NCBI GenBank assembly: GCA_030688545.1
Contig: JAUYHT010000006.1
Span: 390,001 to 422,000 of the forward strand
DNA: 32,000 nt
Source of the DNA: Candidatus Iainarchaeum sp.
GTDB lineage: Archaea; Iainarchaeota; Iainarchaeia; Iainarchaeales; VGJJ01
Reading direction: 5' to 3'
In this document: piece after piece, positions 4,289 through 26,062 of the stretch
Layout: every line of letters starts with the position of its first letter
Numbering within the stretch: position 1 is the stretch's first letter
The notes under the pieces: model-generated
Database searches by the model: none
What the model saw: only the letters and a program-made list of their open reading frames with translations
Told to the model about the DNA's origin: nothing
Made by a program: the position numbers and the translations under genes

Positions 4289-4963
4289 ATGGGTGCTCCC
4301 TCCATGGCAAATCTTGCGAGGAGAATAGGGCGCAGTGTCGGTGGTGCTGCTAGTCGGAGCACTCGGGAAAAACACTCAGTCGCTCGCGCGGTGCGTCCGC
4401 CGCGTTTTAGAACACTAAACCAACAATTGAAATGGACTATAGAGATGGATGTAAAACTTAATCAATTTTCTGGATTGGTAGAAGAGAACAGAGAATTATT
4501 GGTTTCTGGAAAGGGATTCAAGCGAGATAAAAATGGAAATGTCATAGGGCCAGATGGGTCAGAATTGGTTGGTGGAAAAGTTTTGATGCGAACTGCCCGG
4601 GTATATATTCCCGCATTAGCGGTAATGGGGAGCATGTTGGGTACATTGGGTCCAAGCCTTGAACCAAAGAGGATTGCTTATGGGGGAGTTCTAGGCGCTT
4701 TTATTGGAGTAAGCACTCTTATTGGAGTAGGCGCCACAGAATTTATAAACTTCCGCCCGTATCAGAAGCCCTTCCTTCAATTGGAAAAAGCGTTAAAAGG
4801 CAAATTATTCATAGCGAGTGAAACAAGAGATTTGACGAAGGAACAATTGCAGCATAATCAGGCCGTCATAAGTTCCATCGTAAAGCGCCTCAGAGAACTC
4901 CAGGAGCATAACGAGAATGTTCGAACATTGCTCATTCAAACTAGAAAGCTTCGATCCGATTGA
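4289..4963 (+). CDS. Hypothetical membrane/coiled-coil protein, orphan; likely start ATG 4304
   Basis: 224-aa ORF. Two predicted TM helices (VYIPALAVMGSMLGTLG, IAYGGVLGAFIGVSTLIGVGA) and a charged helical C-terminus. From ~4440 the DNA is visibly more AT-rich than its neighbours. TTTAAA at 4275-4280 lies 24 nt before the ATG at 4304 and only 9 nt before 4289. Another alternative start is ATG 4445. Confidence 0.6.
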   Translation: MGAPSMANLARRIGRSVGGAASRSTREKHSVARAVRPPRFRTLNQQLKWTIEMDVKLNQFSGLVEENRELLVSGKGFKRDKNGNVIGPDGSELVGGKVLMRTARVYIPALAVMGSMLGTLGPSLEPKRIAYGGVLGAFIGVSTLIGVGATEFINFRPYQKPFLQLEKALKGKLFIASETRDLTKEQLQHNQAVISSIVKRLRELQEHNENVRTLLIQTRKLRSD

Positions 4964-4982
4964 GTTTGTTCGGGGAAAAAGA

Positions 4983-5969
4983 TCATACCCCCAACCCCAG
5001 CACCTTTCCCACGCGCTCCCGGAGGGGGCTTGGGATGCCTTCCCCTTCTTCGATGAGGGTGTCTCCGAAAATATCTTTCGTGGATTTGATGTCCGCGGGA
5101 GCAGCCGCATCCGTTTTGTTGAGGATTAAGAGGAAGGGGAGGGAGAATTGTTTCTGGAGACTCATGAGGAGGGCGTGCTGTTGCGCCAGGGGATATCCCG
5201 AGGTGGGGGTGGGGTCGATGACGAATAGGATGGCGTTGGCCACGTGATGTAAAGCGGCCATGGCCTTCTTTTCGATGGGGTTGCGCTTCTCCGGAGGACG
5301 ATCCAACAATCCAGGCGTGTCGATGACCTGGATGTCATGATATTTCCATTGGAAGTAACCTAATTGTAACGATTTGGTGGTGAATGGGAAAGAGGCGATG
5401 CGCGCCTTGCTCCCGGTGAGCCGCCCCAACAAAGTCGTTTTGCCCGTGTTGGGATATCCTGCCAAAACAATCGTGGGGATATCCGTGCGGATGTCCGGCA
5501 CCTCCTTCATCAATTGATTAGCCTTGTTCATGATGGCCACGCTCTCCCCCAACGAGTCCATGATATTGGCCACGCGCCCAAAGAAGGATTTGCTGGCCTT
5601 ATCCATCTGCTTGAGGGCATCGGGGGAGGTGAGGTGCATCCGTTGACGCCCTTGGACGAGTTGTTTCTTGAGGAGCTTGCGCACCGCCACCATTTGGGAG
5701 ACGGATTGCTTGACCTTCACGATATTCACGGTTTCAGGGAGAAGTTCTTGATAGAAGGGGTGGAGGTCCTTGAAGGTGGGAACGGAAATGATCATGCGGT
5801 GGAGCTGTTTATCCAGGTATTCGATGAAGAGCTCCATCTTCAGGATGACCTTGGCTTTGCGGTTCTGGATCGTGCTCGTGCGTAATCGTTTGCCCGGCAT
5901 CCGCCGGCGGGCATAGGTAAAGGCCTCTTCCACCAGGCGTTCAGGGGTGGGGAGGGAGTAGAAGCGCAT
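4983..5969 (-). CDS. NOG1-family GTP-binding protein (ribosome biogenesis GTPase)
   Basis: 328 aa. G1 GYPNTGKTT, G3 DTPGLLD, G4 NKTD, preceded by a NOG1-type N-terminal helical domain. Confidence 0.85.
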   Translation of the reverse strand: MRFYSLPTPERLVEEAFTYARRRMPGKRLRTSTIQNRKAKVILKMELFIEYLDKQLHRMIISVPTFKDLHPFYQELLPETVNIVKVKQSVSQMVAVRKLLKKQLVQGRQRMHLTSPDALKQMDKASKSFFGRVANIMDSLGESVAIMNKANQLMKEVPDIRTDIPTIVLAGYPNTGKTTLLGRLTGSKARIASFPFTTKSLQLGYFQWKYHDIQVIDTPGLLDRPPEKRNPIEKKAMAALHHVANAILFVIDPTPTSGYPLAQQHALLMSLQKQFSLPFLLILNKTDAAAPADIKSTKDIFGDTLIEEGEGIPSPLRERVGKVLGLGV

Positions 5970-6064: not shown

Positions 6065-7117
6065 ATGGGCTTTACGTTATATGATCACCGGTATAAGCGT
6101 CTCATGCTCCTCCCCCTCATCGTGGGGATCGCCGCGCTGATTATTGTTTTCATCTATCCCGGCGTCACCCTGGGATTGGATTTCGCGGGGGGCACGCGGG
6201 TCGTTGTCAATACGGACCTTCTCCAGGAGCAGCCCGTGAAGGACCTTCTTTCCTCCGAGTTGGGGTTGCCGGAAGTGAAGGTGCAGATCGTGAGTTCTCC
6301 CCTCGGGACGAATGCGCGCATCGAATACGCGGAACCAAGACCCCTGGCGGAAGCGCGGGTGCTGTTGGACCGCGCGGCCCAAGCGCAGGAAGATAATCCC
6401 ACGCAAGCGGAAGGGTTGTTGCGCGAAGCCCTTCTCAAATTGAATAGGACTCCCTCTTCTTCCGGGGTGGATGCTTTGATCGTCGAAACCGCCCAGGCCA
6501 TCAATGAAGAAAGTCAATCCATCGCGGATGCGGTGAGGGAATCCCTTACTTTGCGTTTCGGATTGCCGGCTTCTACCTCCTTCACTGTAGAAGAGGTCAC
6601 CCCCACTTTCGGCGCCAGCTTCTTGGGGAACGCCTTGTTTGTGGGGTTGATTTCCATCATCTTGCTGACCATCGTCATCTTTATTTTTTTCAGGGAATGG
6701 GTGCCCAGCCTCGCGGTGGTGGAGGCAGCGTTGTTTGACATGCTCATCGCCGTGGCGCTCGCCACCCTGTTTGGTTTTTCTTTCACCCTTGCGGCCGTGG
6801 CGGCGTTGCTCATGCTCATCGGGTATTCAGTAGACACCGATATCCTCCTGACTACCCGTATTCTCAAGCGGAAGGACAAGGATGTCTTTGCCCGGGCCAA
6901 TGATACATTAATCACCGGCCTCACCGTCACGGGAACCTTGTTCGGGGCCGCATTGGTGATGTTGATCGTATCCTGGTATGCTCAAATAACCACCATATTC
7001 GAGATCGCCGCCATTGTCTTGTTTGGAATGATTGGGGATCTTATCGCCACCTGGTTCACCAACGCCCCCATCCTCTTGTGGTATTGGGAGAAGAAGCACG
7101 GGAAGGTGAGCGCATGA
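6065..7117 (+). CDS. secF: Protein-export membrane protein SecF
   Basis: N-terminal TM, an extracytoplasmic domain, then a C-terminal bundle of several predicted TM helices containing GYSVDTDILLTTRI. It is the shorter of the SecDF pair and sits upstream, as is usual in archaea. The ORF track starts at a non-ATG codon at 6038; the first ATG is at 6065. Stop overlaps the secD ATG (ATGA at 7114-7117). Confidence 0.85.
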   Translation: MGFTLYDHRYKRLMLLPLIVGIAALIIVFIYPGVTLGLDFAGGTRVVVNTDLLQEQPVKDLLSSELGLPEVKVQIVSSPLGTNARIEYAEPRPLAEARVLLDRAAQAQEDNPTQAEGLLREALLKLNRTPSSSGVDALIVETAQAINEESQSIADAVRESLTLRFGLPASTSFTVEEVTPTFGASFLGNALFVGLISIILLTIVIFIFFREWVPSLAVVEAALFDMLIAVALATLFGFSFTLAAVAALLMLIGYSVDTDILLTTRILKRKDKDVFARANDTLITGLTVTGTLFGAALVMLIVSWYAQITTIFEIAAIVLFGMIGDLIATWFTNAPILLWYWEKKHGKVSA

Positions 7118-8793
7118 CCCAGAATAAATTATGGAGTAATTGGAAGGTGCTCCTGTGGATGGCCTTCGTGCTCATTAGTCTATTCCTCATCATCCGCATT
7201 GATACCTCGGATGGATTTTCATTGACCCACAATCTCAAACTGGGCTCGGAATTCTCGGGGGGCACCCTATTTCAGTTGCAATTGGCGCATCCCGCCACGG
7301 CCGATGAGATGCAGGACATCCGGTTGATTGTGGAGAAGCGGTTGAACCCCACGGGCATTAGGGATGTCACGGTTTCGAGTACCGGCCAATCCATTGTTCT
7401 GGCCCAGGTGGCAGAAACCCAACCGGAAGAGGTGGAGAAACAGCAAGCCCTCCTCCTTCGCCAGGGTCGATTCGAATCCTTCCTCAATGGGAAGCTCATT
7501 TTTGACGGCAGCCAAATCGTTCAAGTCATCGAGAGCGCCCAGCAGGGTTTTGGCGCCCAACCCATTGGGGTGGGCAATCAGTATCAGTGGACCCTCCCCT
7601 TTCTCTTGAATGATAAAGCGGCCAATGATTTCGCCCGGGCGGCCTTTCACCAGTGCACCCAATCAGGGTTTAGTGCGGGACAGCCGCAGTATGATTGTGC
7701 TTTTACCTATTTCTTTATCGACCGCCCCGCGGACGCGGTAATTATTTATCCCCAGGACGTACGCGCGGCGGACAACGCAAAGGTATTCACCTCTACCCAA
7801 GTCCAGCTCCCGGAAGATATTTCCATTTCCCAGATACTGGACAATGCGGATCTTCACGTGATCATGATAGACGCCAATGCGGCAGAGTTGGACGCTAATC
7901 AGATGGCGTTTCTGCAATCCCTCCCGTCCTCCGTGCAGACCGCTATCCTCCCCCCTGGAGTTAGTCAAGATATCCGCGCGCAATTGGAAGCCGATGGATT
8001 AACAGTGGAAACCCGTCCCCTCGATGACCAAAACCCGTGGATCGTGCAGGTGTCCGGCTTGCGGGATGCCATTTCATTGTCCCCGGGGGTTACAGGGTTG
8101 GATCCCTTCATCGACAACATCGATGACGTGACGCCTCAGCAATTCCTGGTCATCCAGGGGGTGGCTCCGGATGCGGCCACGGCCAAACAACGGTTGGATG
8201 ATTTGCGCGTGATCCTCAAGAGCGGAGCGTTACCCATTCCAATTATCTCCATCAACAAGCAAACGGTTTCTCCTGAATTGGGAGAGCAGTTCCTGAGCAG
8301 CGTGTGGATCATGGGATTGTTGGCCTTGGCCGTGGTGGGTCTCATCATATTTTTACGTTATCGTCAATGGAACCTGGTCATCCCCGTGTTGGGAGTGGGT
8401 TTGTCGGAGATCATCATGATCCTGGGTTTCGCCGCCTATGTGCAATGGAACCTGGATTTGGCTTCCATGGCAGGGATTCTGGCCGCCGTTGGGACGGGGG
8501 TTGACTCCGAAGTCATCATGACAGATGAAATATTGCAAGGCGCCCATGAAGAATCCGAGTCCGAGAAAGGGTGGTCGGACCGGGCCAAGCGCGCCTTTTT
8601 CATCGTGGCGGCCGCCGCGAGCACGAGCATCGCCACCATGCTCCCCCTCGTCATCCTGGGATCGGGGATAGGTAAGCTCAGCGGATTCGCTCTTACCACC
8701 ATCGCCGGGGTATTGTTAGGCGTTTTAATCTCCCGCCCCGCCTTCAACGAAGTCATCAAGACCATCCTCACTCCCAAGAAGCATGAGGAATGA
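7114..8793 (+). CDS. secD: Protein-export membrane protein SecD
   Basis: N-terminal TM, a large extracytoplasmic domain, and a C-terminal TM bundle with GTGVDSEVIMTDEI. The track ORF begins at 7078, but ATG 7114 gives an ATGA overlap with the secF stop and a normal N-terminus (MTQNKLWSNWKVLLWMAFVLISLFLII). Confidence 0.85.
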   Translation: MTQNKLWSNWKVLLWMAFVLISLFLIIRIDTSDGFSLTHNLKLGSEFSGGTLFQLQLAHPATADEMQDIRLIVEKRLNPTGIRDVTVSSTGQSIVLAQVAETQPEEVEKQQALLLRQGRFESFLNGKLIFDGSQIVQVIESAQQGFGAQPIGVGNQYQWTLPFLLNDKAANDFARAAFHQCTQSGFSAGQPQYDCAFTYFFIDRPADAVIIYPQDVRAADNAKVFTSTQVQLPEDISISQILDNADLHVIMIDANAAELDANQMAFLQSLPSSVQTAILPPGVSQDIRAQLEADGLTVETRPLDDQNPWIVQVSGLRDAISLSPGVTGLDPFIDNIDDVTPQQFLVIQGVAPDAATAKQRLDDLRVILKSGALPIPIISINKQTVSPELGEQFLSSVWIMGLLALAVVGLIIFLRYRQWNLVIPVLGVGLSEIIMILGFAAYVQWNLDLASMAGILAAVGTGVDSEVIMTDEILQGAHEESESEKGWSDRAKRAFFIVAAAASTSIATMLPLVILGSGIGKLSGFALTTIAGVLLGVLISRPAFNEVIKTILTPKKHEE

Positions 8794-8795
8794 GC

Positions 8796-8990
8796 CTTTT
8801 TTTCTTAAAAAAAAATGTTTTTTGATCGAACAGTTTCCTAAAAAGCGTTCGGTTTTTTGATGAAACTTCATCGTAAACACCATTTTTCCGTCAACGCTTT
8901 TTCCAACGGAAAAAGGGTTATTACGATGCCCGCAAAATATCGTTTTGCTTGGTTTTCTAAAAAGTTTCTTTCCTAAAAAATCCGATTCAT
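8796..8990. repeat. Degenerate array of the ~33-bp AT-rich repeat family (locus A) with an embedded hairpin
   Basis: Two recognisable units: TTTTTTGATCGAACAGTTTCCTAAAAAG (GATC at 8824) and GTTTTTTGATGAAACTTC (GATG at 8859). Remnants TTTTCTAAAAAG and TTTCCTAAAAAA at 8953-8980. Inverted repeats TTTTTCCGT 8883-8891 / ACGGAAAAA 8906-8914, or alternatively CTTTTTCC 8897-8904 / GGAAAAAG 8908-8915. Lies between convergent secD and the archaeosortase gene. Confidence 0.7.
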
Positions 8991-8995
8991 CTTTT

Positions 8996-9505
8996 TCATT
9001 TCACCAAATGGGCCGCCAGATGGGTGACTCCTTTCGTTCCCAGCGCGCGAGAAAGCAGGGCATACCATAACCCCACGGCCACTCCACTCATAAGGAACCA
9101 GCTCACTACGTGGAAAAATTCCGCGGCCACTGCGCCGAAGGCGAATCCCATTCCAACGACTCCCGCGACGCGCAATAGGTTCAATACGAGGAGGGTGACG
9201 ACTCCGAGTAGGCCCCATTCCCATTTTTGGGAGCGCGCGGGGTGACGAAAACCTAAGAGGAGAGCGAGGAATATACCCGCGCTCGTGAATCCCAAGCACT
9301 CAGGAGTTATGGCAAACGCTCCTTCTTGGAATGGGATGAAGATTCCATTCACTTGGATGGCAAAAAGTATGCCTATAAACCGTGAAAGGGTCTCCTGGAA
9401 AAAAGAGAGGGGAACAAACCGCAACCCTAATTGGATGAGGATAAAAACAGCGAGGAAGCGAATCGTGAATTCCCGGATGCGGGGGTGCGAGAGGAAGCGG
9501 GCCAT
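8996..9505 (-). CDS. Exosortase/archaeosortase family protein (minimal ~170-aa form)
   Basis: 169-aa polytopic membrane protein. Family catalytic-triad spacing: Cys in ITPECLGF (CSG-like), Arg in LNLLRV (N..R), His in EFFHVVSWFLMSG. Lies 4 nt downstream of carS. Confidence 0.7.
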   Translation of the reverse strand: MARFLSHPRIREFTIRFLAVFILIQLGLRFVPLSFFQETLSRFIGILFAIQVNGIFIPFQEGAFAITPECLGFTSAGIFLALLLGFRHPARSQKWEWGLLGVVTLLVLNLLRVAGVVGMGFAFGAVAAEFFHVVSWFLMSGVAVGLWYALLSRALGTKGVTHLAAHLVK

Positions 9506-10080: not shown

Positions 10081-11091
10081 ATGCGCCGTGCCCCTTCATC
10101 TCCCCAACCTGTTCCGGATGCCAAGATCACCCCCTGGCCGGATGAACGGGAAAATACCCCTCCCCCTTCCATCAGGCGGGGTCGCGGGATGAGGGATTGG
10201 ATCGTGCTGATTGCCGCCGTCATTCTGGGGATTTATGTTTTGGGTTTTCTTCTCTTGCTCTTGGATTCCCCTGGAAGCGGGGGAAACCTTTTTCGAGGCG
10301 GGGGGAGCATCGCTCTCATCCCGGTGGAAGGGGAGATAACGTCTTCACCAGGGAATGGAGTGACATCCTACCAAGAAATTATCCAGTCGCTGGACGAGGC
10401 CTCATCCAATACCAGCGTGCGGGCCGTGTTGCTGGAGATCAACAGCGGTGGGGGGAGTGTCGTGGCCACGCATCAGGTGGTGACCCGTATTCGGGAGATG
10501 GATAAGCCAGTCGTGGCTTGGATTGGGGAGGCAGGAGCCAGCGGGGCCTATTATATCGCGGCCGCCGGAAACCATATCATCGCCGATCCGGACGCCATCA
10601 CGGGAAGCATAGGAGTGATTTCGCGTCAGCCCAAATTCTATGAATTGCTCGAAAAGATCGGGGTTGAATGGGTAACCATCCAAACGGGAGAATTGAAGGA
10701 CATCGGATCCCCTTTCCGGGCGATGACAGAAGAGGAGCGGGAGCTCTTTGAACAGTTGGTGGAGGAATCCTTTTTGGAATTCGTGAAGGATATCCGTTCA
10801 TTCCGTGGAGATAATCTGGTGGAAGAGCGTTTTCTGGAAGTATTGGATGGTCGCATTGTATCAGGACGGCAGGCCGTTCTAGCCGGTTTAATCGATGAAA
10901 CGGGAACGAGGGAATACGCCATTCTGAAAGCCGGGGAGTTGGGGGGCATCGAGGGAAAACCCAATGTCATTGTCATGCGGGAAGAGCGCTTTACTTTAGG
11001 GGATTTGCTTTTCGCCATGGGTCAGCAGTTTGGGAAAGGATTCACTTCGAGCGCGGCCGGGTTGGATACGCCAGCGTTGTCGGCGAGATAA
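10081..11091 (+). CDS. sppA: Signal peptide peptidase SppA, 36K type (S49 family)
   Basis: 336 aa. TM anchor MRDWIVLIAAVILGIYVLGF, then NSGGGSVVA, GEAGASGAYYIAAAG (Ser nucleophile region) and ADPDAITGSIGV. Alternative start ATG 10189 lies just before the TM helix. Confidence 0.85.
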   Translation: MRRAPSSPQPVPDAKITPWPDERENTPPPSIRRGRGMRDWIVLIAAVILGIYVLGFLLLLLDSPGSGGNLFRGGGSIALIPVEGEITSSPGNGVTSYQEIIQSLDEASSNTSVRAVLLEINSGGGSVVATHQVVTRIREMDKPVVAWIGEAGASGAYYIAAAGNHIIADPDAITGSIGVISRQPKFYELLEKIGVEWVTIQTGELKDIGSPFRAMTEEERELFEQLVEESFLEFVKDIRSFRGDNLVEERFLEVLDGRIVSGRQAVLAGLIDETGTREYAILKAGELGGIEGKPNVIVMREERFTLGDLLFAMGQQFGKGFTSSAAGLDTPALSAR

Positions 11092-11145
11092 CCTGTATTC
11101 CTTCTTTGATACGTTGGTATCCCCCGGAATTGGACCCAACACTTC

Positions 11146-11352
11146 CCAAAAAAAGTTCGTTTTTGATCAAACTTTTTTCTAAAAAGAAGTCATTTTTTGA
11201 TCAAACTTTTTTTATAAAAAAGTTTGTTTTGATGAAACTTTTTCCTAAAAAGTACCTTTTTTTGATCGAACTTTTTTCTAAAAAGTTCGTTTGATGAAAC
11301 TTTTTTCCAAAATGTTATTTTTTTGATCAACCTTTTTTTCCAAAAAAGGTTG
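11146..11352. repeat. Six tandem copies of the ~33-bp AT-rich repeat family (locus B)
   Basis: GAT(C/G) cores at 11165, 11199, 11231, 11264, 11293 and 11325 (spacings 34, 32, 33, 29, 32). Each unit reads approximately TTTTTTGATCAAAC TTTTTTCT AAAAAG NNN. Fills the gap between convergent sppA and the DUF92 gene. Confidence 0.9.
11329..11351 (-). terminator. Perfect 10-bp hairpin formed by the last repeat unit, 3 nt past the DUF92 stop
   Basis: AACCTTTTTT (11329-11338) pairs with AAAAAAGGTT (11342-11351), with a 3-nt loop. The stem itself supplies a U6 tract on both strands. Confidence 0.4.
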
Positions 11353-11354
11353 TT

Positions 11355-12029
11355 CTAGAACAACAGCGCAAAAAACACGCCGATGATCAGGGCGGAGAGG
11401 AAGTTGGTGAGGTTGTTGTCGGCATACCCCTCTTTCTGGAGGGTGGCTCCAATGAGGCTGTCGAGAACCGATCCCATGATTCCCGCCAGGGTGAGAGCGG
11501 CCAGCCAGAACACGTCTTGCGTGAGGACATATCCTAAAATCCCGAAAATTATTCCGCCCGCAGCGGCCGCGACCAGGCCTAACACCGTAATTCCTCCATC
11601 CGTCCCAGGTGTGACGGGTTTGAGAGTGGTAATGAGGAGCGGGGGGTCTTTGGACATCCCTCCAATTTCGCTGGAAAGGGTGTCCGCGAACGCGGAGGCG
11701 AGCGAAGCAAAATAGCCCACACTGAAAGGAACGGGATTGATGATCAGCGCCAGTAATGCCGGTCCCACGTTCCCGATGATGTTCACGGTGGATCGAGTGC
11801 CGTGTTCCTTTTGCCTATATTTTCCTCGTACAAATCGAGTGACGCTTTCCCCCACTAGGAAGAAGAGGATGATGGCAAAAAAGGCTCCCAACCCCCCGCG
11901 TTCGGCGACAAATAGGGCGACGATCCCTCCAATAAAAATACCGGGGAGGTCGAGCAAGCGCTTGTGAATCACCAAGGCAATAACAACCAACAACACAGCG
12001 CCCACCACGAGCGCGGTTTCAGGGATCAT
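11355..12029 (-). CDS. DUF92/TMEM19 family integral membrane protein (family of plant phytyl-phosphate kinase VTE6)
   Basis: 224-aa polytopic protein. Family-typical ADTLSSEIG and GTDGGITVLGLVAAAAGG motifs. Confidence 0.75.
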   Translation of the reverse strand: MIPETALVVGAVLLVVIALVIHKRLLDLPGIFIGGIVALFVAERGGLGAFFAIILFFLVGESVTRFVRGKYRQKEHGTRSTVNIIGNVGPALLALIINPVPFSVGYFASLASAFADTLSSEIGGMSKDPPLLITTLKPVTPGTDGGITVLGLVAAAAGGIIFGILGYVLTQDVFWLAALTLAGIMGSVLDSLIGATLQKEGYADNNLTNFLSALIIGVFFALLF

Positions 12030-13111: not shown

Positions 13112-13157
13112 GGGTATGCCGGATGAGGGCCATACCCAGCTTGGTACCAGAACCAAG
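13112..13157 (-). promoter_or_regulatory. Two adjacent hairpins in the predicted 5' leader of the S15-S3Ae-DUF92 operon
   Basis: GGGTATG 13112-13118 pairs with CATACCC 13131-13137. CTTGGT 13140-13145 pairs with ACCAAG 13152-13157. The only TATA-like element upstream on the minus strand is TATAAAAA (13181-13188), which places the TSS near 13157. Confidence 0.35.
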
Positions 13158-13182
13158 ATAATCAACCCTCCTGGGGAAGGTT

Positions 13183-17432: not shown

Positions 17433-18119
17433 ATGAATCTTCCTAAACCCAGACTACCAAAACGGACTCTGGAGAAGGCAACCGTCGTAGGAGTACATCA
17501 CACAACCAGAACAAATAGCCGTGTAAATCGAAACGTGGCGCGGGTGATTGAGATTCTTAGAGAACTCAAGAAAAGAGGAGATACTAAAGTTGGAATTGAA
17601 TGTTTGGAAGACACCCCACAAGCTCGGAATAATCCCCCGAGGCGCTATTTTCACGCTTTGTACTTAAGAGCCAAACGTATGGGTATTCAACTGGTGGAAG
17701 TAGAGGATAATAAAGTGTTTCACCTGAAAACCTTGGTTGAAACATTGAGCGCCCCACTCAGGGCCAAAACACACTTGACGGTTGGCGCTAAATATTTCGG
17801 CGAATTCACTCAAAAGGAGCTGCATGAGATTATTAACGCGTTGAACTATTTCAGGTCCATTAGGATGGCTGAAATTGCTAAGGCCGAAAAATTGAACACC
17901 TTCATTGTAGGAGGTAAACACGCTATGCAATTAAACACTCCATCATACCAGGTTGTTTTTCTAGAGAAACATCCAGATATGTACCACGCCAGACCGCATA
18001 CGTTGGAGGATCAACGCGTGAGAGAAAAAAGATACTTTGAAAAGTGGGAGAGGCTAATCCATGAAATGTACCAAGCATCTTCAGTAAAAAGTAACCGAGC
18101 GCGGCGCTCACAACCCTAA
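17433..18119 (+). CDS. Hypothetical protein, low-GC orphan; faint TraB/Tiki/ChaN-superfamily resemblance
   Basis: 228-aa ORF, visibly A/T-richer than its flanks. N-terminal VVGVHHT...VGIECLED and C-terminal FIVGGKHAMQL resemble the GTxH...E...GxxH layout of TraB/Tiki proteins. Not verifiable without an HMM search. The 3' end overlaps the dnaJ 3' end by 12 nt. Confidence 0.55.
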   Translation: MNLPKPRLPKRTLEKATVVGVHHTTRTNSRVNRNVARVIEILRELKKRGDTKVGIECLEDTPQARNNPPRRYFHALYLRAKRMGIQLVEVEDNKVFHLKTLVETLSAPLRAKTHLTVGAKYFGEFTQKELHEIINALNYFRSIRMAEIAKAEKLNTFIVGGKHAMQLNTPSYQVVFLEKHPDMYHARPHTLEDQRVREKRYFEKWERLIHEMYQASSVKSNRARRSQP

Positions 18120-22909: not shown

Positions 22910-24736
22910 ATGCGAGCATGGGGCATCTTAGGGATTTTGGGCATCCTCGCCCTGGCGGGATGCATTGATCTCATTTACGCCCCCGACCCGGGGAAGACAC
23001 AGAACCCGGTGGCGTGCGATTTGTTCACCGATTTCACCAGCAAGGACGCGTGCTTCCGTGATAAGGCGGTAGCGGAGAAGGATGGGTCCGCGTGTGAACG
23101 GATTGTGACCCCGGAGATTAAGGATGAGTGTTGGGCGCGCCTCTCCCCTATCCTGAAAGATATTTCCCTCTGCCTGCGAGTAACTTCTCCATCCACCCAG
23201 GCGACGTGTTTTGAATCCCAACCCGGTTTACTCGCGGCCGGGAAAATATGCCCATCCTTTACATTGGCATCCGAAAGGGAAACCTGCTACTATCATGCCG
23301 CCCGCGTGACGAATGATTACATTTTGTGCGAGAAGACGGGGGCGCAGAAGGATGCCTGTTTGAATGCGGTAGCCATCCGGTTGGCATCCGCGAGCGTGTG
23401 CTTAGGTATTTTGAACCTGGATTCCAGGGATACGTGCCTCCATGATACGGCCATCGCTTCCAAGGAAGGGGCGGCTTGCGGGCAAATCCAATCCCTTTCC
23501 ATGAGGGATGACTGCTTTTTGAGCGTGGCCGTGGCCCAAGTGAATAGCAAGCTCTGTGCGTCCATTGCGAGTACGCCATTGAAAGCCTCGTGTTTGGTGC
23601 AGGTGAAGAATGCCGCCACCTCCACATTGGAATGCCAAACCCTCTCTGATTTCGCATTGCGGGATGATTGCTTGGTGCAGTTGGCCTCGTCCAATATCCA
23701 AACCGATATCTGCGGTCTCGTCCTCAACGATGCCAAACGGGTTACTTGTTATGCACAAGTGGCCTTGCGCGTGGGGGATGTGGGAATCTGCGACTACATC
23801 ATCCAAGCGGTTGAAAAGCAGGCGTGCATCCAACGCATCGCGTCCAATAAAGGAACATTAGAGGCCTGCGATTTCTTGAGTGGGGTGCCCCGGGACGAAT
23901 GCATCATCCAGATTGCCGTGAAAGAAGGGAGCATGCAGTATTGCCTCTTCACCCGCACCATAACTTCGAGCGTGGATTACACTGATTTATGTTATGCCAC
24001 CGTAGCTAAACAGACCAACCAGCCCCAACCCTGCTTGCGTATCCAGGAGGCGGGAGAAAAGGATTCGTGCCTGCACGATGTGGGCATCGCCACCCAAAAT
24101 GTCTCGACGTGCGGTTTCATTACTTCAAAATCCATCCTAAGCGCGTGCCTCGCGGCCGTTGGCGCCAGTCAAGGGGATGCCTCGGCCTGCGCCTCCATTC
24201 CAGTGAAAGAAAGCAAGGATGCGTGTTACAAAGATCTGGCTATCCAACAGGATAATGCCGGGTTGTGCGGGAACATATTGAATAATTTCACCCGGGATGC
24301 GTGTTATTCTCGAGTAGGGCGAGACACCTCCGATGTGGGGGTTTGCCTGCTCATCATTTCATCCACGCTGGAGGATGCCTGCGTGAGCGAGGTGGCCATT
24401 GCGCTATCCGATGCCACGTATTGCCAACACATAGGGACGAGTAACATCATCCTGCAGGACGATTGCCTGGAGAAGGTGGCCCTGGCCCGCGCGGAATATT
24501 CCATCTGTGCCGGGCTTTCTAATGATACCAAGCGGGGGGTCTGCACGGGGAAGGTGGCCGTGCTGACGGGGAATGCCAACGCCTGCGGAGCGCTTCCTCT
24601 GGCGCCGGTGAAGGACAAAATTTTCCAATACAAAGCGCGGGACGCCTGCTGGAATCAAGTGGCGACCCAGGGAAAAGTCCCCGAGCTCTGCGCCAACATA
24701 TATGATGATACCCTCCGGAGTGCGTGTGAACCATGA
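22910..24736 (+). CDS. Cysteine-rich tandem-repeat lipoprotein (22 x 26-aa two-Cys repeats)
   Basis: 608 aa. Signal peptide plus lipobox MRAWGILGILGILALAGC. After that, 44 further Cys occur in a nearly invariant alternating C-x11-C-x13 spacing. Consensus: C-x-x-[IL]-x5-[RK]-D-x-C-[YLF]-x-x-[VI]-A-x4-[DN]-x3. Confidence 0.8.
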   Translation: MRAWGILGILGILALAGCIDLIYAPDPGKTQNPVACDLFTDFTSKDACFRDKAVAEKDGSACERIVTPEIKDECWARLSPILKDISLCLRVTSPSTQATCFESQPGLLAAGKICPSFTLASERETCYYHAARVTNDYILCEKTGAQKDACLNAVAIRLASASVCLGILNLDSRDTCLHDTAIASKEGAACGQIQSLSMRDDCFLSVAVAQVNSKLCASIASTPLKASCLVQVKNAATSTLECQTLSDFALRDDCLVQLASSNIQTDICGLVLNDAKRVTCYAQVALRVGDVGICDYIIQAVEKQACIQRIASNKGTLEACDFLSGVPRDECIIQIAVKEGSMQYCLFTRTITSSVDYTDLCYATVAKQTNQPQPCLRIQEAGEKDSCLHDVGIATQNVSTCGFITSKSILSACLAAVGASQGDASACASIPVKESKDACYKDLAIQQDNAGLCGNILNNFTRDACYSRVGRDTSDVGVCLLIISSTLEDACVSEVAIALSDATYCQHIGTSNIILQDDCLEKVALARAEYSICAGLSNDTKRGVCTGKVAVLTGNANACGALPLAPVKDKIFQYKARDACWNQVATQGKVPELCANIYDDTLRSACEP

Positions 24737-25041
24737 GACGAAAAAAGTTGGGAACCAGAAGGACGTGGGGCAATACTTCCATCGCCGAGGTATTAGGATA
24801 TCATGTCAACCGTGTCCGGGGCGATCATCGCATCCTCTTTCTATGGGTGGTTGAAATATTGTTGGCCGTTGGATTGGCCGCGAGCATGGCCATCTACTTG
24901 GACCCGGATATCAATGTGGTCCCTTTTCCATGGAATATTATCGCCTTCCTGATTATGTTGAGTATTGGGATTTGGCTCCACACCTATACGCGGCCCTACC
25001 GGATGGCCCGGCGAGTAATGTATAAGCGTTCCCGCAGCTAA
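24733..25041 (+). CDS. Small 2-TM membrane protein, hypothetical
   Basis: 102 aa. ATGA overlap with the stop of the Cys-repeat gene. Two hydrophobic helices (ILFLWVVEILLAVGLAASMAIY, IIAFLIMLSIGIWL) with basic termini. Confidence 0.6.
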   Translation: MRRKKLGTRRTWGNTSIAEVLGYHVNRVRGDHRILFLWVVEILLAVGLAASMAIYLDPDINVVPFPWNIIAFLIMLSIGIWLHTYTRPYRMARRVMYKRSRS

Positions 25042-25100
25042 ACCATTCCTATCCTCTGATTGAAAAAAAAGAAATTTTGCATCCGTTCTAAAATCACCTA

Positions 25101-25267
25101 TTTAGATCAACCCGAATCCAAAAATAGATACTTTTTTTGATCAAAATTTTTTTCTAGAAAAGAGCACGTTTTTTGATCAAACTTTTTCCTAAAAAAAGTC
25201 CGTTTTTTGATCAAACTTTTTTCTAAAAAAAGTCGTTTTTTGATCAACCTTTTTCCTAAAAAGTTTG
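25101..25267. repeat. Four to five tandem copies of the ~33-bp AT-rich repeat family (locus C)
   Basis: GATC cores at 25105 (degenerate copy), 25139, 25175, 25209 and 25242 (spacings 34, 36, 34, 33). Units 25168-25201 and 25202-25234 are nearly identical (GTTTTTTGATCAAACTTTTT(T/C)CTAAAAAAAGTC). Confidence 0.9.
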
Positions 25268-25280
25268 AAAAAAAGGAAAA

Positions 25281-25296
25281 GGCCGGGTAGCCGGCC
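25281..25296 (-). terminator. Hairpin terminator of the Arg-rich protein gene
   Basis: GGCCGG gtag CCGGCC is a perfect 6-bp GC stem 9 nt past the TAA stop. On the minus strand it is followed by TTTTCCTTTTTTTC. Confidence 0.6.
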
Positions 25297-25305
25297 GTAT
25301 TCCAT

Positions 25306-25491
25306 TTATGCTCGGCGCGCGCGGCGTCGCGCGGGGCGTCGGGCCGCGGGCTTTCGGGCCGTCGTACGGCGTCGCGTAGTGCGGCGTCGGGCGGTGGTCG
25401 TTGTGGCCTTGCGGCGCACTCGGCGTCTTTTTGCCGGTCGGGCGGCGGATGCAGCAGCGCTGCGGCTTCTTGCTCTTCGTCTTACAGCCAT
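25306..25491 (-). CDS. Small extremely basic Arg-rich protein (protamine-like), function unknown
   Basis: 61 aa with 25 Arg, 3 Lys and no Asp/Glu. AGGAGG (complement of 25501-25506) lies 9 nt upstream of the ATG. Hairpin plus T-tract downstream. Confidence 0.65.
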   Translation of the reverse strand: MAVRRRARSRSAAASAARPAKRRRVRRKATTTTARRRTTRRRTTARKPAARRPARRRARRA

Positions 25492-25576: not shown

Positions 25577-26062
25577 ATGCATACAAATACGCGTTTTACA
25601 TCATCAAATGATCGTGCACCGCGCCAATGGGTGCGCGTCGTGGCCGCGGGAACATTTGATTGGGTGCACCCGGGACATGTGCATTTTCTTTCGGCGGCCA
25701 AGGCGCTGGGGGATCATCTCACCGTGATTGTAGCCCGGGATGCCACGGTGCGCCGCATCAAAGGGACTTTCCCTATTACCCCCGAGGAGGGCCGAAAAGC
25801 CGTCATTTCGGCCGTGAGGGGGGTGGATGCAGCCGTTTTAGGGAACGAGGGGGATATTTTCCAAAAAATAGTTGAATTGAACCCGGATATCCTGGCGATG
25901 GGGTATGATCAACAGCCGGAGGATGAGGCATTACGGAAGGCTTTGGCGGAGCGGGGGCTTTCGTGCCAAGTCGTGCGCATCTCCTCCTGGCATCCGGAAT
26001 CCAATAAAACATCGGTGCTCAAAAGGCGGTTGGGTATAGAAACAAATCGCCTCACCACGTGA
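25577..26062 (+). CDS. ribL: FAD synthase RibL (archaeal FMN adenylyltransferase, cytidylyltransferase fold)
   Basis: 161 aa. AAGTFDWVHPGH (nucleotidyltransferase HxGH), LGDHLTVIVARDATV..IKG and VDAAVLG blocks are colinear with Methanocaldococcus RibL. Confidence 0.8.
   Translation: MHTNTRFTSSNDRAPRQWVRVVAAGTFDWVHPGHVHFLSAAKALGDHLTVIVARDATVRRIKGTFPITPEEGRKAVISAVRGVDAAVLGNEGDIFQKIVELNPDILAMGYDQQPEDEALRKALAERGLSCQVVRISSWHPESNKTSVLKRRLGIETNRLTT

Follow-up and report, generated by a model that had tools for sequence, protein, structure and literature searches.

Three gene junctions in the 32,000-nt stretch of Candidatus Iainarchaeum sp. DNA analysed here (the window) hold arrays of a short repeat, and the repeat unit proved to be a copy of a 31-bp module, TTTTTGATCAAACTTTTTYCTAAAAAGTTTG, of which identical copies occur across phyla. 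In the window, the module behaves like a small selfish repeat that was inserted and multiplied between genes. I give about an even chance to the reading that the arrays are a REP-like, non-coding, mobile hairpin module which was tandemly amplified in place and whose T-tracts double as leaky bidirectional terminators. The most interesting parts, namely the cross-phylum identity and the link to tRNA gene boundaries, are not visible from the window alone.

Repeat arrays in the window and in syntenic relatives

The arrays and their flanking genes are listed in Table 1. Tandem Repeats Finder placed array 1 at 11148-11354, with a period of 32-33 bp, 5.8-6.4 copies and 66-71% matches, and array 2 at 25133-25262, with a period of 34 bp, 3.8 copies and 87% matches. 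The core TTTTGATCAAACTTTTT, with up to three mismatches allowed, has 13 matches in the window against 0.2 expected from shuffles. All 13 lie inside the three array gaps and 12 are on the + strand; the two in array 3 have three mismatches each. An nhmmer profile was built solely from module copies of other genomes. As MAFFT left the 3′ arms out of register, a padded alignment of my own and a direct complementarity test were used instead. With the profile, all six units of array 1 were recovered, at E from 3e-4 to 1.5e-7. Array 2 gave three strong units, with E from 8e-8 to 6e-6, and one weak unit, array 3 gave only weak matches (E 0.13-0.6), and there was no further match in the window outside the three arrays. 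The unit period in the window is 29-36 bp, and the copies are 66-87% identical to one another. The gap of array 3 has a G+C content of 33%, compared with about 54% for the window. All three arrays have one orientation, on the G-rich strand, although three loci are too few for testing a strand bias. No tRNA or tmRNA gene was found in the window, and no Rfam family matched it at the gathering score; over array 2, Rfam gave only sub-threshold matches at chance level.

Table 1. Repeat units, arrays and flanking genes in the window
Feature	Coordinates	Strand	Remarks
Array 1	11160..11352	+	Six head-to-tail units
Partial unit, left edge of array 1	11148..11159	+	A-run + GTTCG, the 3′ half of the hairpin; read from the sequence; Tandem Repeats Finder array starts at 11148
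Array 1 unit 1	11160..11192	+	TTTTT-GATC-AAAC-T6-CT-A5-G, outer stem broken; exact core match; nhmmer E = 3.2e-6
Array 1 unit 2	11193..11226	+	Perfect hairpin CAAACTTTTTTT/AAAAAAGTTTG; nhmmer E = 4.7e-5
Array 1 unit 3	11227..11256	+	GATG variant, partial stem; core 1 mismatch; nhmmer E = 1.6e-5
Array 1 unit 4	11257..11289	+	Compensated stem CGAAC..GTTCG; nhmmer E = 2.7e-7; DNA fold -6.1 kcal/mol
Array 1 unit 5	11290..11317	+	Degenerate GATG variant; core 2 mismatches; nhmmer E = 3.1e-4
Array 1 unit 6	11318..11352	+	Compensated 11-bp stem CAACC T6 / A6 GGTTG; nhmmer E = 1.5e-7
Array 2	25101..25267	+	Four to five units
Array 2 leading unit	25101..25131	+	Degenerate; read from the sequence; missed by the nhmmer profile
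Array 2, four units	25132-25168, 25169-25202, 25203-25235, 25236-25267	+	Tandem Repeats Finder period 34, 87% matches; core matches
Array 3	8794..8995	+	Decayed units 8818-8851 and 8853-8880, relics to 8990; fills the SecD/EpsH-like convergent gap
sppA (Peptidase_S49), left of array 1	10081..11091	+	Pfam; first T>=5 run 69 nt past the stop
DUF92 gene, right of array 1	11355..12029	-	Pfam; unit 6 hairpin begins 2 nt past the stop; T6 run at 8 nt
SecD-like gene, left of array 3	7078..8793	+	Pfam; T7 run 4 nt past the stop
Exosortase/EpsH-like gene, right of array 3	8996..9505	-	Gene tables of L062 and L068
102-aa gene, function unassigned, left of array 2	24733..25041	+	
Arg-rich 61-aa ORF (25306-25491) with terminator (25296-25281), right of array 2	25281..25491	-	

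The initial annotation had described six units in array 1 with GAT(C/G) cores at 11165, 11199, 11231, 11264, 11293 and 11325, and these positions are exact. Units are indeed present at the two other places it named, 25101-25267 and 8796-8990; the unit at 25101 and the entire array at 8794-8995 are strongly degenerate. All three loci are convergent junctions, as had been claimed, the junction of array 2 only if the Arg-rich ORF on the - strand is a gene; the ORF has a Shine-Dalgarno sequence upstream and a GC hairpin with a T-run past its stop. The other convergent junctions of the window are tight or overlapping and none contains a unit, as had been noted.

Are the arrays shared by related genomes? 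Four syntenic Diapherotrites contigs with the same gene order as the window were compared. The SecD/EpsH junction, which is 202 nt wide in the window, is 2 nt or overlapping in all four relatives, and the SppA/DUF92 junction (263 nt in the window) is 0-2 nt in two of them, while one relative (L069) has an 80-nt gap without an element and another (L070) has an extra gene there. Since the same two junctions are mostly 0-2 nt or overlapping in the relatives, the arrays of the window are lineage-specific insertions. L070 has an insertion of its own, a 35-38-nt element in a divergent gap where four other genomes have nothing. Two further elements of L070 lie in a junction that measures 1-6 nt in three relatives; in the window, this junction has 34 nt and no element. 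Upstream of the same tRNA-Ser gene, two relatives differ in element content and orientation.

The arrays grew in tandem. Six metagenome contigs have arrays with a period of 27, 28 or 35-39, in which the module and a fixed spacer are reiterated together, and this points to growth by local tandem duplication; in Methanobacteriales, array periods are 71-73 bp. The suggestion that the arrays are an expanding minisatellite or a mobile-element relic thus turned out to be the best fit, given the tight junctions in the four relatives, the arrays of module plus fixed spacer and the sharp 31-bp bounds. The usual traces of transposition were also sought. There is no target-site duplication: identical flanking 3-mers at natural boundaries number 5 against 1.2 expected, and longer ones are absent. 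No transposase, HUH/Y1 enzyme or recombinase turned up in the window or its 11 kb of added flank, nor in the roughly 4 kb around the element at 61 other loci; no tnpA or tnpB was found near any of 67 loci. All-against-all clustering of the ORFs at the 61 loci gave no linked gene, only ABC ATPases and other housekeeping families. As no mobilising gene lies near the module, the agent of its mobility is purely hypothetical.

Anatomy of the module

In the module, a T-run is followed by 3 nt (GAT) and then by a hairpin, in which the outer 5 bp enclose an inner stem of a T-run and an A-run; the hairpin is A/T-rich and has 10 bp, and a GATC palindrome is also part of the module. Neither coding capacity nor terminal inverted repeats are present. 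Its boundaries are sharp: in 58 independent contexts, seven positions outside the search pattern are kept in 54-57 of the 58, and the information drops to about zero directly past both ends. The stem of 10-11 bp with a loop of 2-3 nt is weak (-6 to -9.5 kcal/mol), with DNA folding z-scores of -3.4 to -4.4. Unit 6 of array 1 (stem CAACCTTTTTT/AAAAAAGGTTG) has a DNA fold of -9.5 kcal/mol and z = -4.4. Its perfect stem lies at the DUF92 stop codon as initially reported, with 11 bp instead of 10 and its end 2 nt instead of 3 nt from the stop.

The hairpin is real. Among 50 instances with a 5′ arm other than CAAAC, picked blind to the 3′ arm, a fully complementary 5-bp outer stem was found in 17 against 0.8 expected, and these stems comprise 13 different sequences. 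Two units of the window have such compensated stems (CGAAC/GTTCG and CAACC/GGTTG), and sister variants keep the architecture with both hairpin arms altered complementarily. The complementary changes could result from quasi-palindrome correction, not from selection. Across the variants, the tag at the foot of the hairpin is T4-7 followed by GAT, CGC, GGT, GTT, GGG or AGC. A perfect 10-bp palindrome, TTTGATCAAA, which cannot fold as a hairpin, is kept in the main subtype and absent from the sister variants, which retain only the T-run and the hairpin.

Distribution and tRNA gene boundaries

An exact 24-mer of the module was found at 61 loci in 46 species-level genomes, namely 45 archaea of about ten lineages and one real Clostridia MAG. 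The archaeal carriers are DPANN groups, methanogens, ANME-1 and one haloarchaeon, with 23-59% G+C. Contamination of the bins by a single organism is an unlikely source of the cross-phylum copies, because their flanks span that whole G+C range and their tRNA contexts differ. Across genomes, the module shows no preference for the convergent junctions that the initial annotation had emphasised: divergent, tandem and convergent gaps are about equally frequent among the 61 loci. The letter-perfect identity across phyla contrasts with the 66-87% among the copies of the window, and this would require a conserved master copy or selection, neither of which was found. Neither pattern scans of viral contigs nor a blastn search of plasmid and phage collections with array 2 yielded a copy of the module, although a low-complexity filter may hide matches in the latter; thus no vector is known for a horizontal spread. 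Literature searches with the sequence itself and with keywords for such an archaeal repeat found no published description.

In other genomes, copies are found whose hairpin end lies 0-5 nt from tRNA 5′ ends, tRNA 3′ ends or stop codons. The hairpin end of the module is within 5 nt of a gene or tRNA boundary in about 20 of 52 cases, compared with two for the T-run end. At tRNA 5′ ends, the module is forward in nine of nine cases, with 0-3 nt left between it and the mature 5′ end, and in five of the nine its last G is G1 of the tRNA. At tRNA 3′ ends, it is reversed in four of four cases, with the hairpin adjoining the 3′ end. It also occurs in both orientations in the sense strand of tRNA introns (tRNA-Phe of L059, tRNA-Gly of L025, and L027), where the hairpin is 1-2 nt from a splice site, and in tRNA leaders, where a conserved promoter block lies upstream of it. 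Where the module is missing, tRNA genes have a box A at -35 to -25; those with the module have TTTTTGATCAAA at -31 to -20. A conserved canonical promoter still lies 60-105 nt upstream of the module-bearing tRNA-Ser, and in L036 there is no canonical box A between tRNA-Leu and the preceding tRNA, only modules. At four loci (L001, L003, L006 and L028), a start codon follows the module by 12-14 nt, with a G-rich Shine-Dalgarno-like stretch in three of them. A passively tolerated insertion does not predict such strict orientation at boundaries; the boundary bias and the orientation are a hint that the module has a function or that its insertion is guided by structure.

Comparison with known elements and possible origins

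By its architecture, the module resembles the REP elements of bacteria, and it is a member of a widespread family of miniature palindromic repeats. Like REP/BIME (REPIN) sequences, which are mobilised by RAYT transposases, it is an extragenic, imperfect palindrome within the range of 20-40 nt that can fold into a stem-loop, and its hairpin has a short conserved tag at the 5′ foot; both often lie at 3′ ends or between convergent genes, both lack target-site duplications, and roles in termination and mRNA 3′ protection have been proposed. Singletons, dimers and head-to-tail reiterations carrying pieces of the neighbouring DNA are known for REP elements (PMC3733652), and the module occurs in these forms too. 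On the other hand, REP elements are G+C-rich and have no association with tRNA ends and introns, while the module is A/T-rich with a weak stem. Its tag is a T-run with GAT, CGC, GGT and so on, and not the GT[AG]G that REP elements have 0-2 nt 5′ of the hairpin foot. REPs are species-specific (PMC6006769), whereas an identical 24-31-mer of the module is found in 46 species-level genomes. The class 2 TnpA-REP (RAYT, HUH-Y1) proteins have been described as bacterial (PMC6006769), and no RAYT gene was found in 43 kb of the source genome (window plus flank) or in about 4 kb around the 61 other loci.

The IS200/IS605 family is common in archaea (PMC6006769). It moves by single-strand HUH-Y1 transposition, and its ends have a subterminal hairpin beside a short cleavage or target motif and neither inverted terminal repeats nor target duplication. 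The module likewise lacks both and may have such a motif beside its hairpin, but it has a single hairpin in 31 bp and no pair of left and right ends, and no TnpA (Y1) gene was found in the 43 kb of the source genome covered. At the hairpin foot, the main subtype has TTGAT, which serves ISDra2 as its target/TAM pentanucleotide; the sister subtypes lack TTGAT and have other tags. The single orientation of the three arrays of the window, on the G-rich strand, is a further likeness, within the limit of three loci. A DDE-type MITE was rejected for the lack of terminal inverted repeats and target-site duplication and for the length of only 31 bp. Mobile hairpins of organelles (fungal mitochondrial GC clusters, double-hairpin elements) are tiny and non-coding, lie beside tRNA genes, in introns and in intergenic regions, and spread without an obvious enzyme; they differ from the module in domain of life and composition and have no sequence relationship to it. 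The arrays resemble CRISPR in that they belong to an archaeon and are made of direct repeats about 30 bp long whose core is palindromic. However, the 0-5 nt between units, the lack of unique spacers and of a leader, and the single copies all over other genomes reject CRISPR, as the initial annotation had already concluded for the first two of these features; neither the window proteins nor the 11 kb of extra flank include a Cas family. Integron attC sites have the consensus R″(RYYYAAC)...R′(GTTRRRY), span 55-140 bp and lie near IntI; here, ATCAAAC and GTTTGNN break both boxes, the hairpin is 23 bp, and there is no integrase in the window. A Xer/dif-like core site and an ORB origin do not fit by consensus sequence. 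A C/D-box sRNA was dismissed, as the GATG variants are C-box-like but have no D box and the consensus is GATC; triple-helix or switch folds have implausible geometry. The hairpin core was rejected as BRE/TATA too, since the start would fall 13-16 nt inside the abutting tRNAs.

If the module is a mobile REP-like repeat, the following course is proposed. The family would have spread within and between genomes by a trans-acting activity and would persist where its insertion does no harm: past stop codons, between genes, and in the leaders, trailers and introns of tRNAs. In the Diapherotrites genome, it may have entered three convergent junctions that are otherwise tight, and replication slippage or unequal exchange may then have raised the copy number on the spot. 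The copies would now be decaying, with array 2 presumably the youngest and array 3 the oldest.

Termination offers another view of the same arrays. The initial annotation had proposed stacked oligo-T terminators, and T5-T7 runs do lie 4, 16 and 8 nt past the stop codons of the SecD-like, EpsH-like and DUF92 genes, so that the gene-proximal units probably act as oligo-T terminators for three of the six flanking genes; the first T-run comes 69 nt and more than 80 nt past the stop for the two other + strand genes. T-runs of five or more are dense in the three gaps (41 of the 155 in the window, in 2.3% of the bases), and each unit has T5-T7 on both strands. Like archaeal oligo-T terminators, the arrays offer runs of five or more T soon past stop codons on both strands, and they also resemble the terminator model of a Pyrococcus histone gene in having several consecutive T-tracts (PMC2253867). 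Other transcription-unit ends of the window have T5-T7 within 3-31 nt. In eight other genomes, a hairpin with T5 in its first arm begins 1-5 nt past a stop codon, and such a hairpin directly follows the four tRNA 3′ ends; a GC hairpin is often found ahead of the T-run end, which makes a hairpin-plus-T-run terminator. As a side effect, the array is probably a leaky bidirectional terminator. That the arrays are selected bidirectional terminators or insulators, stacked as a fail-safe between convergent genes, is unlikely. RNA polymerase must read through the copies in tRNA introns and leaders, where, as in divergent gaps, termination would be harmful, and the even distribution over gap types shows no confinement to 3′ ends. 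Moreover, the relatives do with junctions of 0-2 nt at most of these sites, one unit would be enough and six stay unexplained, and oligo-T termination needs neither a covarying stem nor a GATC palindrome, nor do its sites consist of sequence-conserved modules. Could the module instead be a functional boundary element of RNA genes, either a portable promoter with the start at its 3′ end or a hairpin that marks or helps RNA processing at mature 5′ and 3′ ends and where exons meet introns, the arrays being amplified by-products? The orientation at tRNA ends, the G shared with G1, the intronic hairpins at splice sites, the position of TTTTTGATCAAA, the start codons past the module and the tRNA-Leu of L036 all speak for it, yet I consider it decidedly improbable. 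As a promoter, TTTTTGAT with its central GATC is a poor TATA box, for which sister variants have T4-CGC or T4-GGG; no BRE is conserved upstream of the module, and the tRNA-Ser with modules keeps its canonical promoter. All copies of the window are antisense into the right-hand genes, and to my knowledge no archaeal nuclease cuts at such hairpin feet.

The remaining two explanations are very improbable. One holds that the arrays are sites for a dimeric DNA-binding protein on TTTGATCAAA, as a centromere-like, nucleoid-organising, regulatory-decoy or origin element, and would account for a perfect palindrome that does not fold, for direct repeats in AT-rich gaps and perhaps for the DNA polymerase D genes 5-7 kb away. 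A phased array, as initially suggested, is contradicted by the spacing (29-36 bp in the window; 27, 28, 35-39 and 71-73 bp elsewhere), and for the same lack of constant spacing and of an initiator or partition gene, an iteron/ORB origin or a centromere array was rejected. No Orc1/Cdc6, Rep, ParA/SegA or similar gene lies in the window or 11 kb of extra flank, and such a role also agrees poorly with three loci within 16 kb, single modules in tRNA introns and flanks, the loss of the palindrome in sister variants and the absence of the arrays from syntenic relatives. The other holds that the arrays are local mutation products without mobility, in which T-run terminators became palindromic by fold-back or template switching and then grew by slippage, the likeness across genomes being convergent. 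Many different outer stems are perfectly complementary, a hairpin arm adjoins the stop codon as if the first arm were the original terminator, tandem growth occurred, and neither target-site duplication nor transposase is found, all of which would suit this course. Convergence, however, cannot give 31 identical bases, loop and GATC included, in 46 genomes, as a chance match to an AT-rich 24-mer is estimated here at about 5e-13 per position. In addition, the same CAAAC arm follows unrelated genes and tRNAs, and fold-back copying leaves the distal tag ATC-AAAAA unexplained.

As a tentative possibility only, the 31-nt module might be an element of a new kind, either mobile or involved in processing, which seeks out the borders of stable-RNA genes, both at tRNA 5′ and 3′ ends and where exons meet introns, always with the hairpin towards the mature RNA; its mechanism might work at the RNA level or be directed by structure. 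In that case, it would have passed horizontally among ten or more archaeal lineages, with DPANN symbionts and their probable methanogen hosts included, and the arrays of the window would be amplified landing sites.

Dispersed small palindromic repeats are well studied in bacteria and barely described in archaea, as far as I could find, and I found none that is known to preserve 31 bases unchanged across phyla. Mobility of the module would point to an unrecognised system of enzyme-in-trans mobilisation common to DPANN archaea and methanogens, and the module could then be used to trace gene flow between the two groups. Should the module act at RNA boundaries, it would be relevant to the start, end and processing of tRNA transcripts in streamlined archaea. 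The oligo-T tracts in tRNA introns and leaders also question how strict T5 termination is in these lineages. Finally, the arrays break short-read assemblies of the carrier genomes, and short-read contigs were found to end inside them.

Tandem units of the window

A 31-bp AT-rich module, composed of a T-run, a GATC palindrome and an A/T-rich hairpin, is reiterated in three arrays of the window (see table). The window has a G+C content of ~54% and carries archaeal genes such as those of CarS, ribosomal protein S3Ae, Kae1 and PolD subunits. The deposited proteins of the window are assigned to 'Candidatus Diapherotrites archaeon', which belongs to the DPANN lineages, and to a contig of 445,965 bp. 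When 3 mismatches are allowed, the core TTTTGATCAAACTTTTT has 13 matches in the window against 0.2 expected; 12 of the 13 lie on the + strand, and all are confined to the three gaps. With a profile derived solely from module copies of other genomes, array 1 yielded six units, array 2 three strong units and one weak unit, and array 3 weak relics, with no further units elsewhere in the window; nor was an additional array found in the adjoining 10 kb on the right and 1.2 kb on the left. The initial annotation, which had placed tandem units in three convergent gaps, is confirmed. These are the only long convergent junctions of the window, the others being no longer than 25 nt or overlapping. Two convergent gene pairs overlap by 11-12 nt, and the T-runs that would terminate each transcript therefore fall within the partner gene.

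Features of the window and of module loci in other genomes
Sequence	Feature	Positions	Strand	Gap holding core matches	Tandem Repeats Finder range (period)
Window	Array 1 (sppA/DUF92)	11148-11354	+	11092-11354	11148-11354 (32-33 bp)
Window	Array 2	25101-25267	+	25042-25305	25133-25262 (34 bp)
Window	Array 3 (SecD/EpsH-like)	8794-8995	+	8794-8995
Window	Overlap of convergent genes	18108-18119
Window	Overlap of convergent genes	26052-26062
Window	Arginine-rich ORF	25281-25491	-
Window	AGCTTGG palindrome	13138-13165
L068	AGCTTGG palindrome	~12880
L069	AGCTTGG palindrome	~12990
L070	AGCTTGG palindrome	~13900
L071	AGCTTGG palindrome	~12860
Window	Low-G+C gene	4289-4963	+
Window	Low-G+C gene	17433-18119	+
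L036	tRNA-Arg/tRNA-Leu region	5603-5940
L046	71-bp repeat array	4931-5130
L075	Two module clusters	1-1652

The junction of array 2 is regarded as convergent because a minus-strand ORF of 61 aa has a Shine-Dalgarno sequence (GGAGGT) 8 nt ahead of it, and its stop codon is followed by a GC hairpin with a T-run. This ORF, uncalled in the Logan gene table, is extremely arginine-rich (MAVRRRARSRSAAASAARPAKRRRVRRK...) and may encode a small basic nucleic-acid-binding protein. In an independent assembly, one short-read contig begins inside array 3 and finishes inside array 1; thus, the arrays act as assembly-breaking repeats. The arrays are of different ages: array 2 has 87% matches and array 1 66-71%, and the sequence of array 3 is near-random.

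The limits of the module were determined from 58 non-redundant contexts around the 24-mer TTTGATCAAACTTTTTYCTAAAAA. The TT preceding it and the GTTTG following it are kept in 54-57 of the 58, and the information content falls to about zero directly beyond both ends. The module is therefore a sharply bounded 31-bp sequence, TTTTTGATCAAACTTTTTYCTAAAAAGTTTG, containing a palindrome TTTGATCAAA, which is unable to fold, and a hairpin CAAACTTTTT-YCT-AAAAAGTTTG of -6 to -7.4 kcal/mol (-9.5 in unit 6 of array 1). Sister variants with an unchanged layout are present at the same loci: T4-7, a 3-nt tag (GAT, CGC, GGT, GTT, GGG or AGC), a 5-bp outer stem around T4-6, a 1-4-nt loop, and A4-6. Among 50 instances chosen blind to the 3′ arm and excluding the main subtype (outer stem CAAAC/GTTTG), the outer stem is fully complementary in 17, compared with 0.8 expected, and 13 different sequences are represented; two window units have the compensated stems CGAAC/GTTCG and CAACC/GGTTG. 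Thus, the hairpin, or a perfect palindrome, is maintained, and quasi-palindrome correction could contribute to this beside selection.

Distribution and placement at gene boundaries

I scanned one genome per species (185,579 species) for the exact 24-mer and found 61 loci in 46 genomes, with flanks of 23-59% G+C. The carriers are Micrarchaeota (7 genomes), Aenigmatarchaeota (4 genomes), Iainarchaeota (2 genomes, 3 loci), Woesearchaeota (2 genomes), Parvarchaeota (1), Altiarchaeota (1), Methanobacteriales (13 loci), Methanosarcinales (7 loci), Methanophagales (2), Methanocellales (1), a haloarchaeon (1), several unclassified archaea, and one Clostridia MAG. The last one, HGM12713, is the sole bacterial carrier, and SLH and TrmK domains indicate that its contigs are truly bacterial. 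Its modules lie at four contig ends (L012, L018, L031 and L061), with a terminator-like hairpin on one side and G+C-rich REP-like hairpin clusters on the other. No copy was found in viral_contigs by pattern scans or in plasmid and phage collections by blastn of array 2, whose low-complexity filter could mask matches, and the module sequence itself is in no paper of the literature library searched.

Nine tRNA genes are preceded by a module, always in the forward orientation (9/9) and ending 0-3 nt ahead of the mature 5′ end; in five of them, the last G of the module is tRNA position 1. Four tRNA 3′ ends are followed by a reversed module (4/4) with the hairpin abutting. Modules also reside in tRNA introns at three loci, L059 (tRNA-Phe), L025 (tRNA-Gly) and L027, in both orientations relative to the tRNA and with 1-2 nt between hairpin and splice site. 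In eight genomes, the hairpin starts 1-5 nt past the stop codon of the gene reading into the module, and the DUF92 stop codon in the window has the same arrangement. Overall, a gene or tRNA boundary is no more than 5 nt away from the hairpin end in ~20 of 52 cases and from the T-run end in 2. Convergent, tandem (both orientations) and divergent junctions occur at about equal frequency.

Box A lies at -35 to -25 in module-free tRNA genes; where a module is present, TATA-like boxes occur at -80 to -96. Upstream of tRNA-Ser, a 27-nt promoter block is common to two related genomes, and the modules in the 60-105 nt between block and tRNA differ in kind and orientation. With promoters upstream of the module and copies in introns, transcription must run through it in leaders and introns, which excludes efficient termination by the module in these lineages.

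At L036, the 79 nt between tRNA-Arg and tRNA-Leu consist solely of family members; inverted modules stand on both flanks of tRNA-Leu, and 14 nt of its 3′ end (TCCTCCCTCCTGCA) are repeated ~80 nt further downstream, in the manner of an integration scar. At L046 (Candidatus Methanoflexus mossambicus), a module-embedding 71-bp repeat array lies directly 3′ of a DUF92 gene; the window has the same adjacency although the organisms are unrelated, which may be a coincidence or a shared preference. Each module cluster of L075 (metagenome contig Ga0209514_10000015, 729,776 bp) is followed by a ~100-nt paralogous, structured-looking segment ending in TGGGGTGTGGTCAG. These segments have no Rfam match and may be unannotated RNA genes.

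Gain, growth and nature of the arrays

Four related Diapherotrites contigs (L068-L071; SppA 50-56% identical) share with the window the order PolD, NOG1, SecDF, EpsH-like, CarS, SppA, DUF92, S3Ae, S15, RIO, aaRS, DnaJ, DnaK, GrpE. The SecD/EpsH-like junction is 2 nt or overlapping in the relatives and 202 nt in the window. The SppA/DUF92 junction, 263 nt in the window, is 0-2 nt in two relatives, 80 nt without a module in one, and has an extra gene in another. L070 has its own family members at other sites: an insertion of 35-38 nt in a divergent gap, the same gap being empty in four other genomes, and two tandem units in a junction of 1-6 nt in three relatives and of 34 nt without the element in the window. 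The filled and empty orthologous sites show lineage-specific gain. In a metagenome scan for two cores 12-24 nt apart, six contigs had arrays with a period of 27, 28 or 35-39, reiterating the module together with a fixed short spacer, and 71-73-bp repeats of Methanoflexus and a Methanobacterium embed the module. Since module and spacer are reiterated as one, the arrays grow by local tandem duplication and not by repeated independent insertion.

The best-supported account of the arrays is a REP-like miniature hairpin element, which would have inserted into three narrow convergent junctions of this genome and then been amplified in place. Like REPs, the module is a small hairpin with a short tag at its foot, is extragenic, makes no target duplication, and is reiterated head-to-tail with bits of flanking DNA (PMC3733652). 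Unlike REPs, it is A/T-rich, lacks the GT[AG]G tag and a known cognate enzyme, and has the same sequence in different phyla, whereas each REP is specific to a species (PMC6006769). The earlier suggestion of an expanding minisatellite or mobile-element relic fits best, given the tandem growth and the lineage-specific gain, but neither the window with its extra flanks nor the surroundings of the module at the 61 loci contain a transposase, integrase or HUH enzyme. In the main subtype, the foot of the hairpin carries TTGAT, the target pentanucleotide of ISDra2; an IS200/IS605-type single-strand enzyme is thus a candidate, as a lead and not a result. The stacked oligo-T terminators of the initial annotation are retained in part: T5-T7 occurs on both strands of every unit and 4-16 nt past three stop codons of array-flanking genes, and some degree of transcription termination by the arrays is therefore probable. 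The intron and leader copies show that such termination is leaky. The proposed phased array of palindromic binding sites finds no support: the units are unevenly spaced, and the neighbourhood lacks initiator and partition genes. A CRISPR array, already dismissed there, is ruled out by the absence of spacers and cas genes, and a DDE-type MITE by the absence of target duplication and terminal inverted repeats. No Rfam family matched the module.

Most of the interest lies in two features that justify a separate reading beyond the REP-like account. Copies are letter-perfect between phyla but diverge by 13-34% within the window, and to account for this, a conserved master copy or selection is needed. 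Where the module touches tRNA ends, splice sites or stop codons, it does so with its hairpin and in a strict orientation, which passive tolerance does not predict; this suggests that insertion is directed by structure or that the module has a role at RNA boundaries. That the module is a mobile or processing element homing to stable-RNA gene boundaries is conceivable but rather unlikely.

Other features of the syntenic region

The divergent gap between S15 and the next gene contains a palindromic motif AGCTTGG-N2-4-AGAACCAAGATAA, with a TATA box following ~25 nt downstream. It is invariant in the orthologous gaps of five Diapherotrites genomes whose proteins are only ~50% identical, and is probably a conserved operator. 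Two low-G+C genes of the window (0.39-0.47) have no Pfam match and are missing from the syntenic contigs of the four relatives; they are likely to be recent acquisitions.
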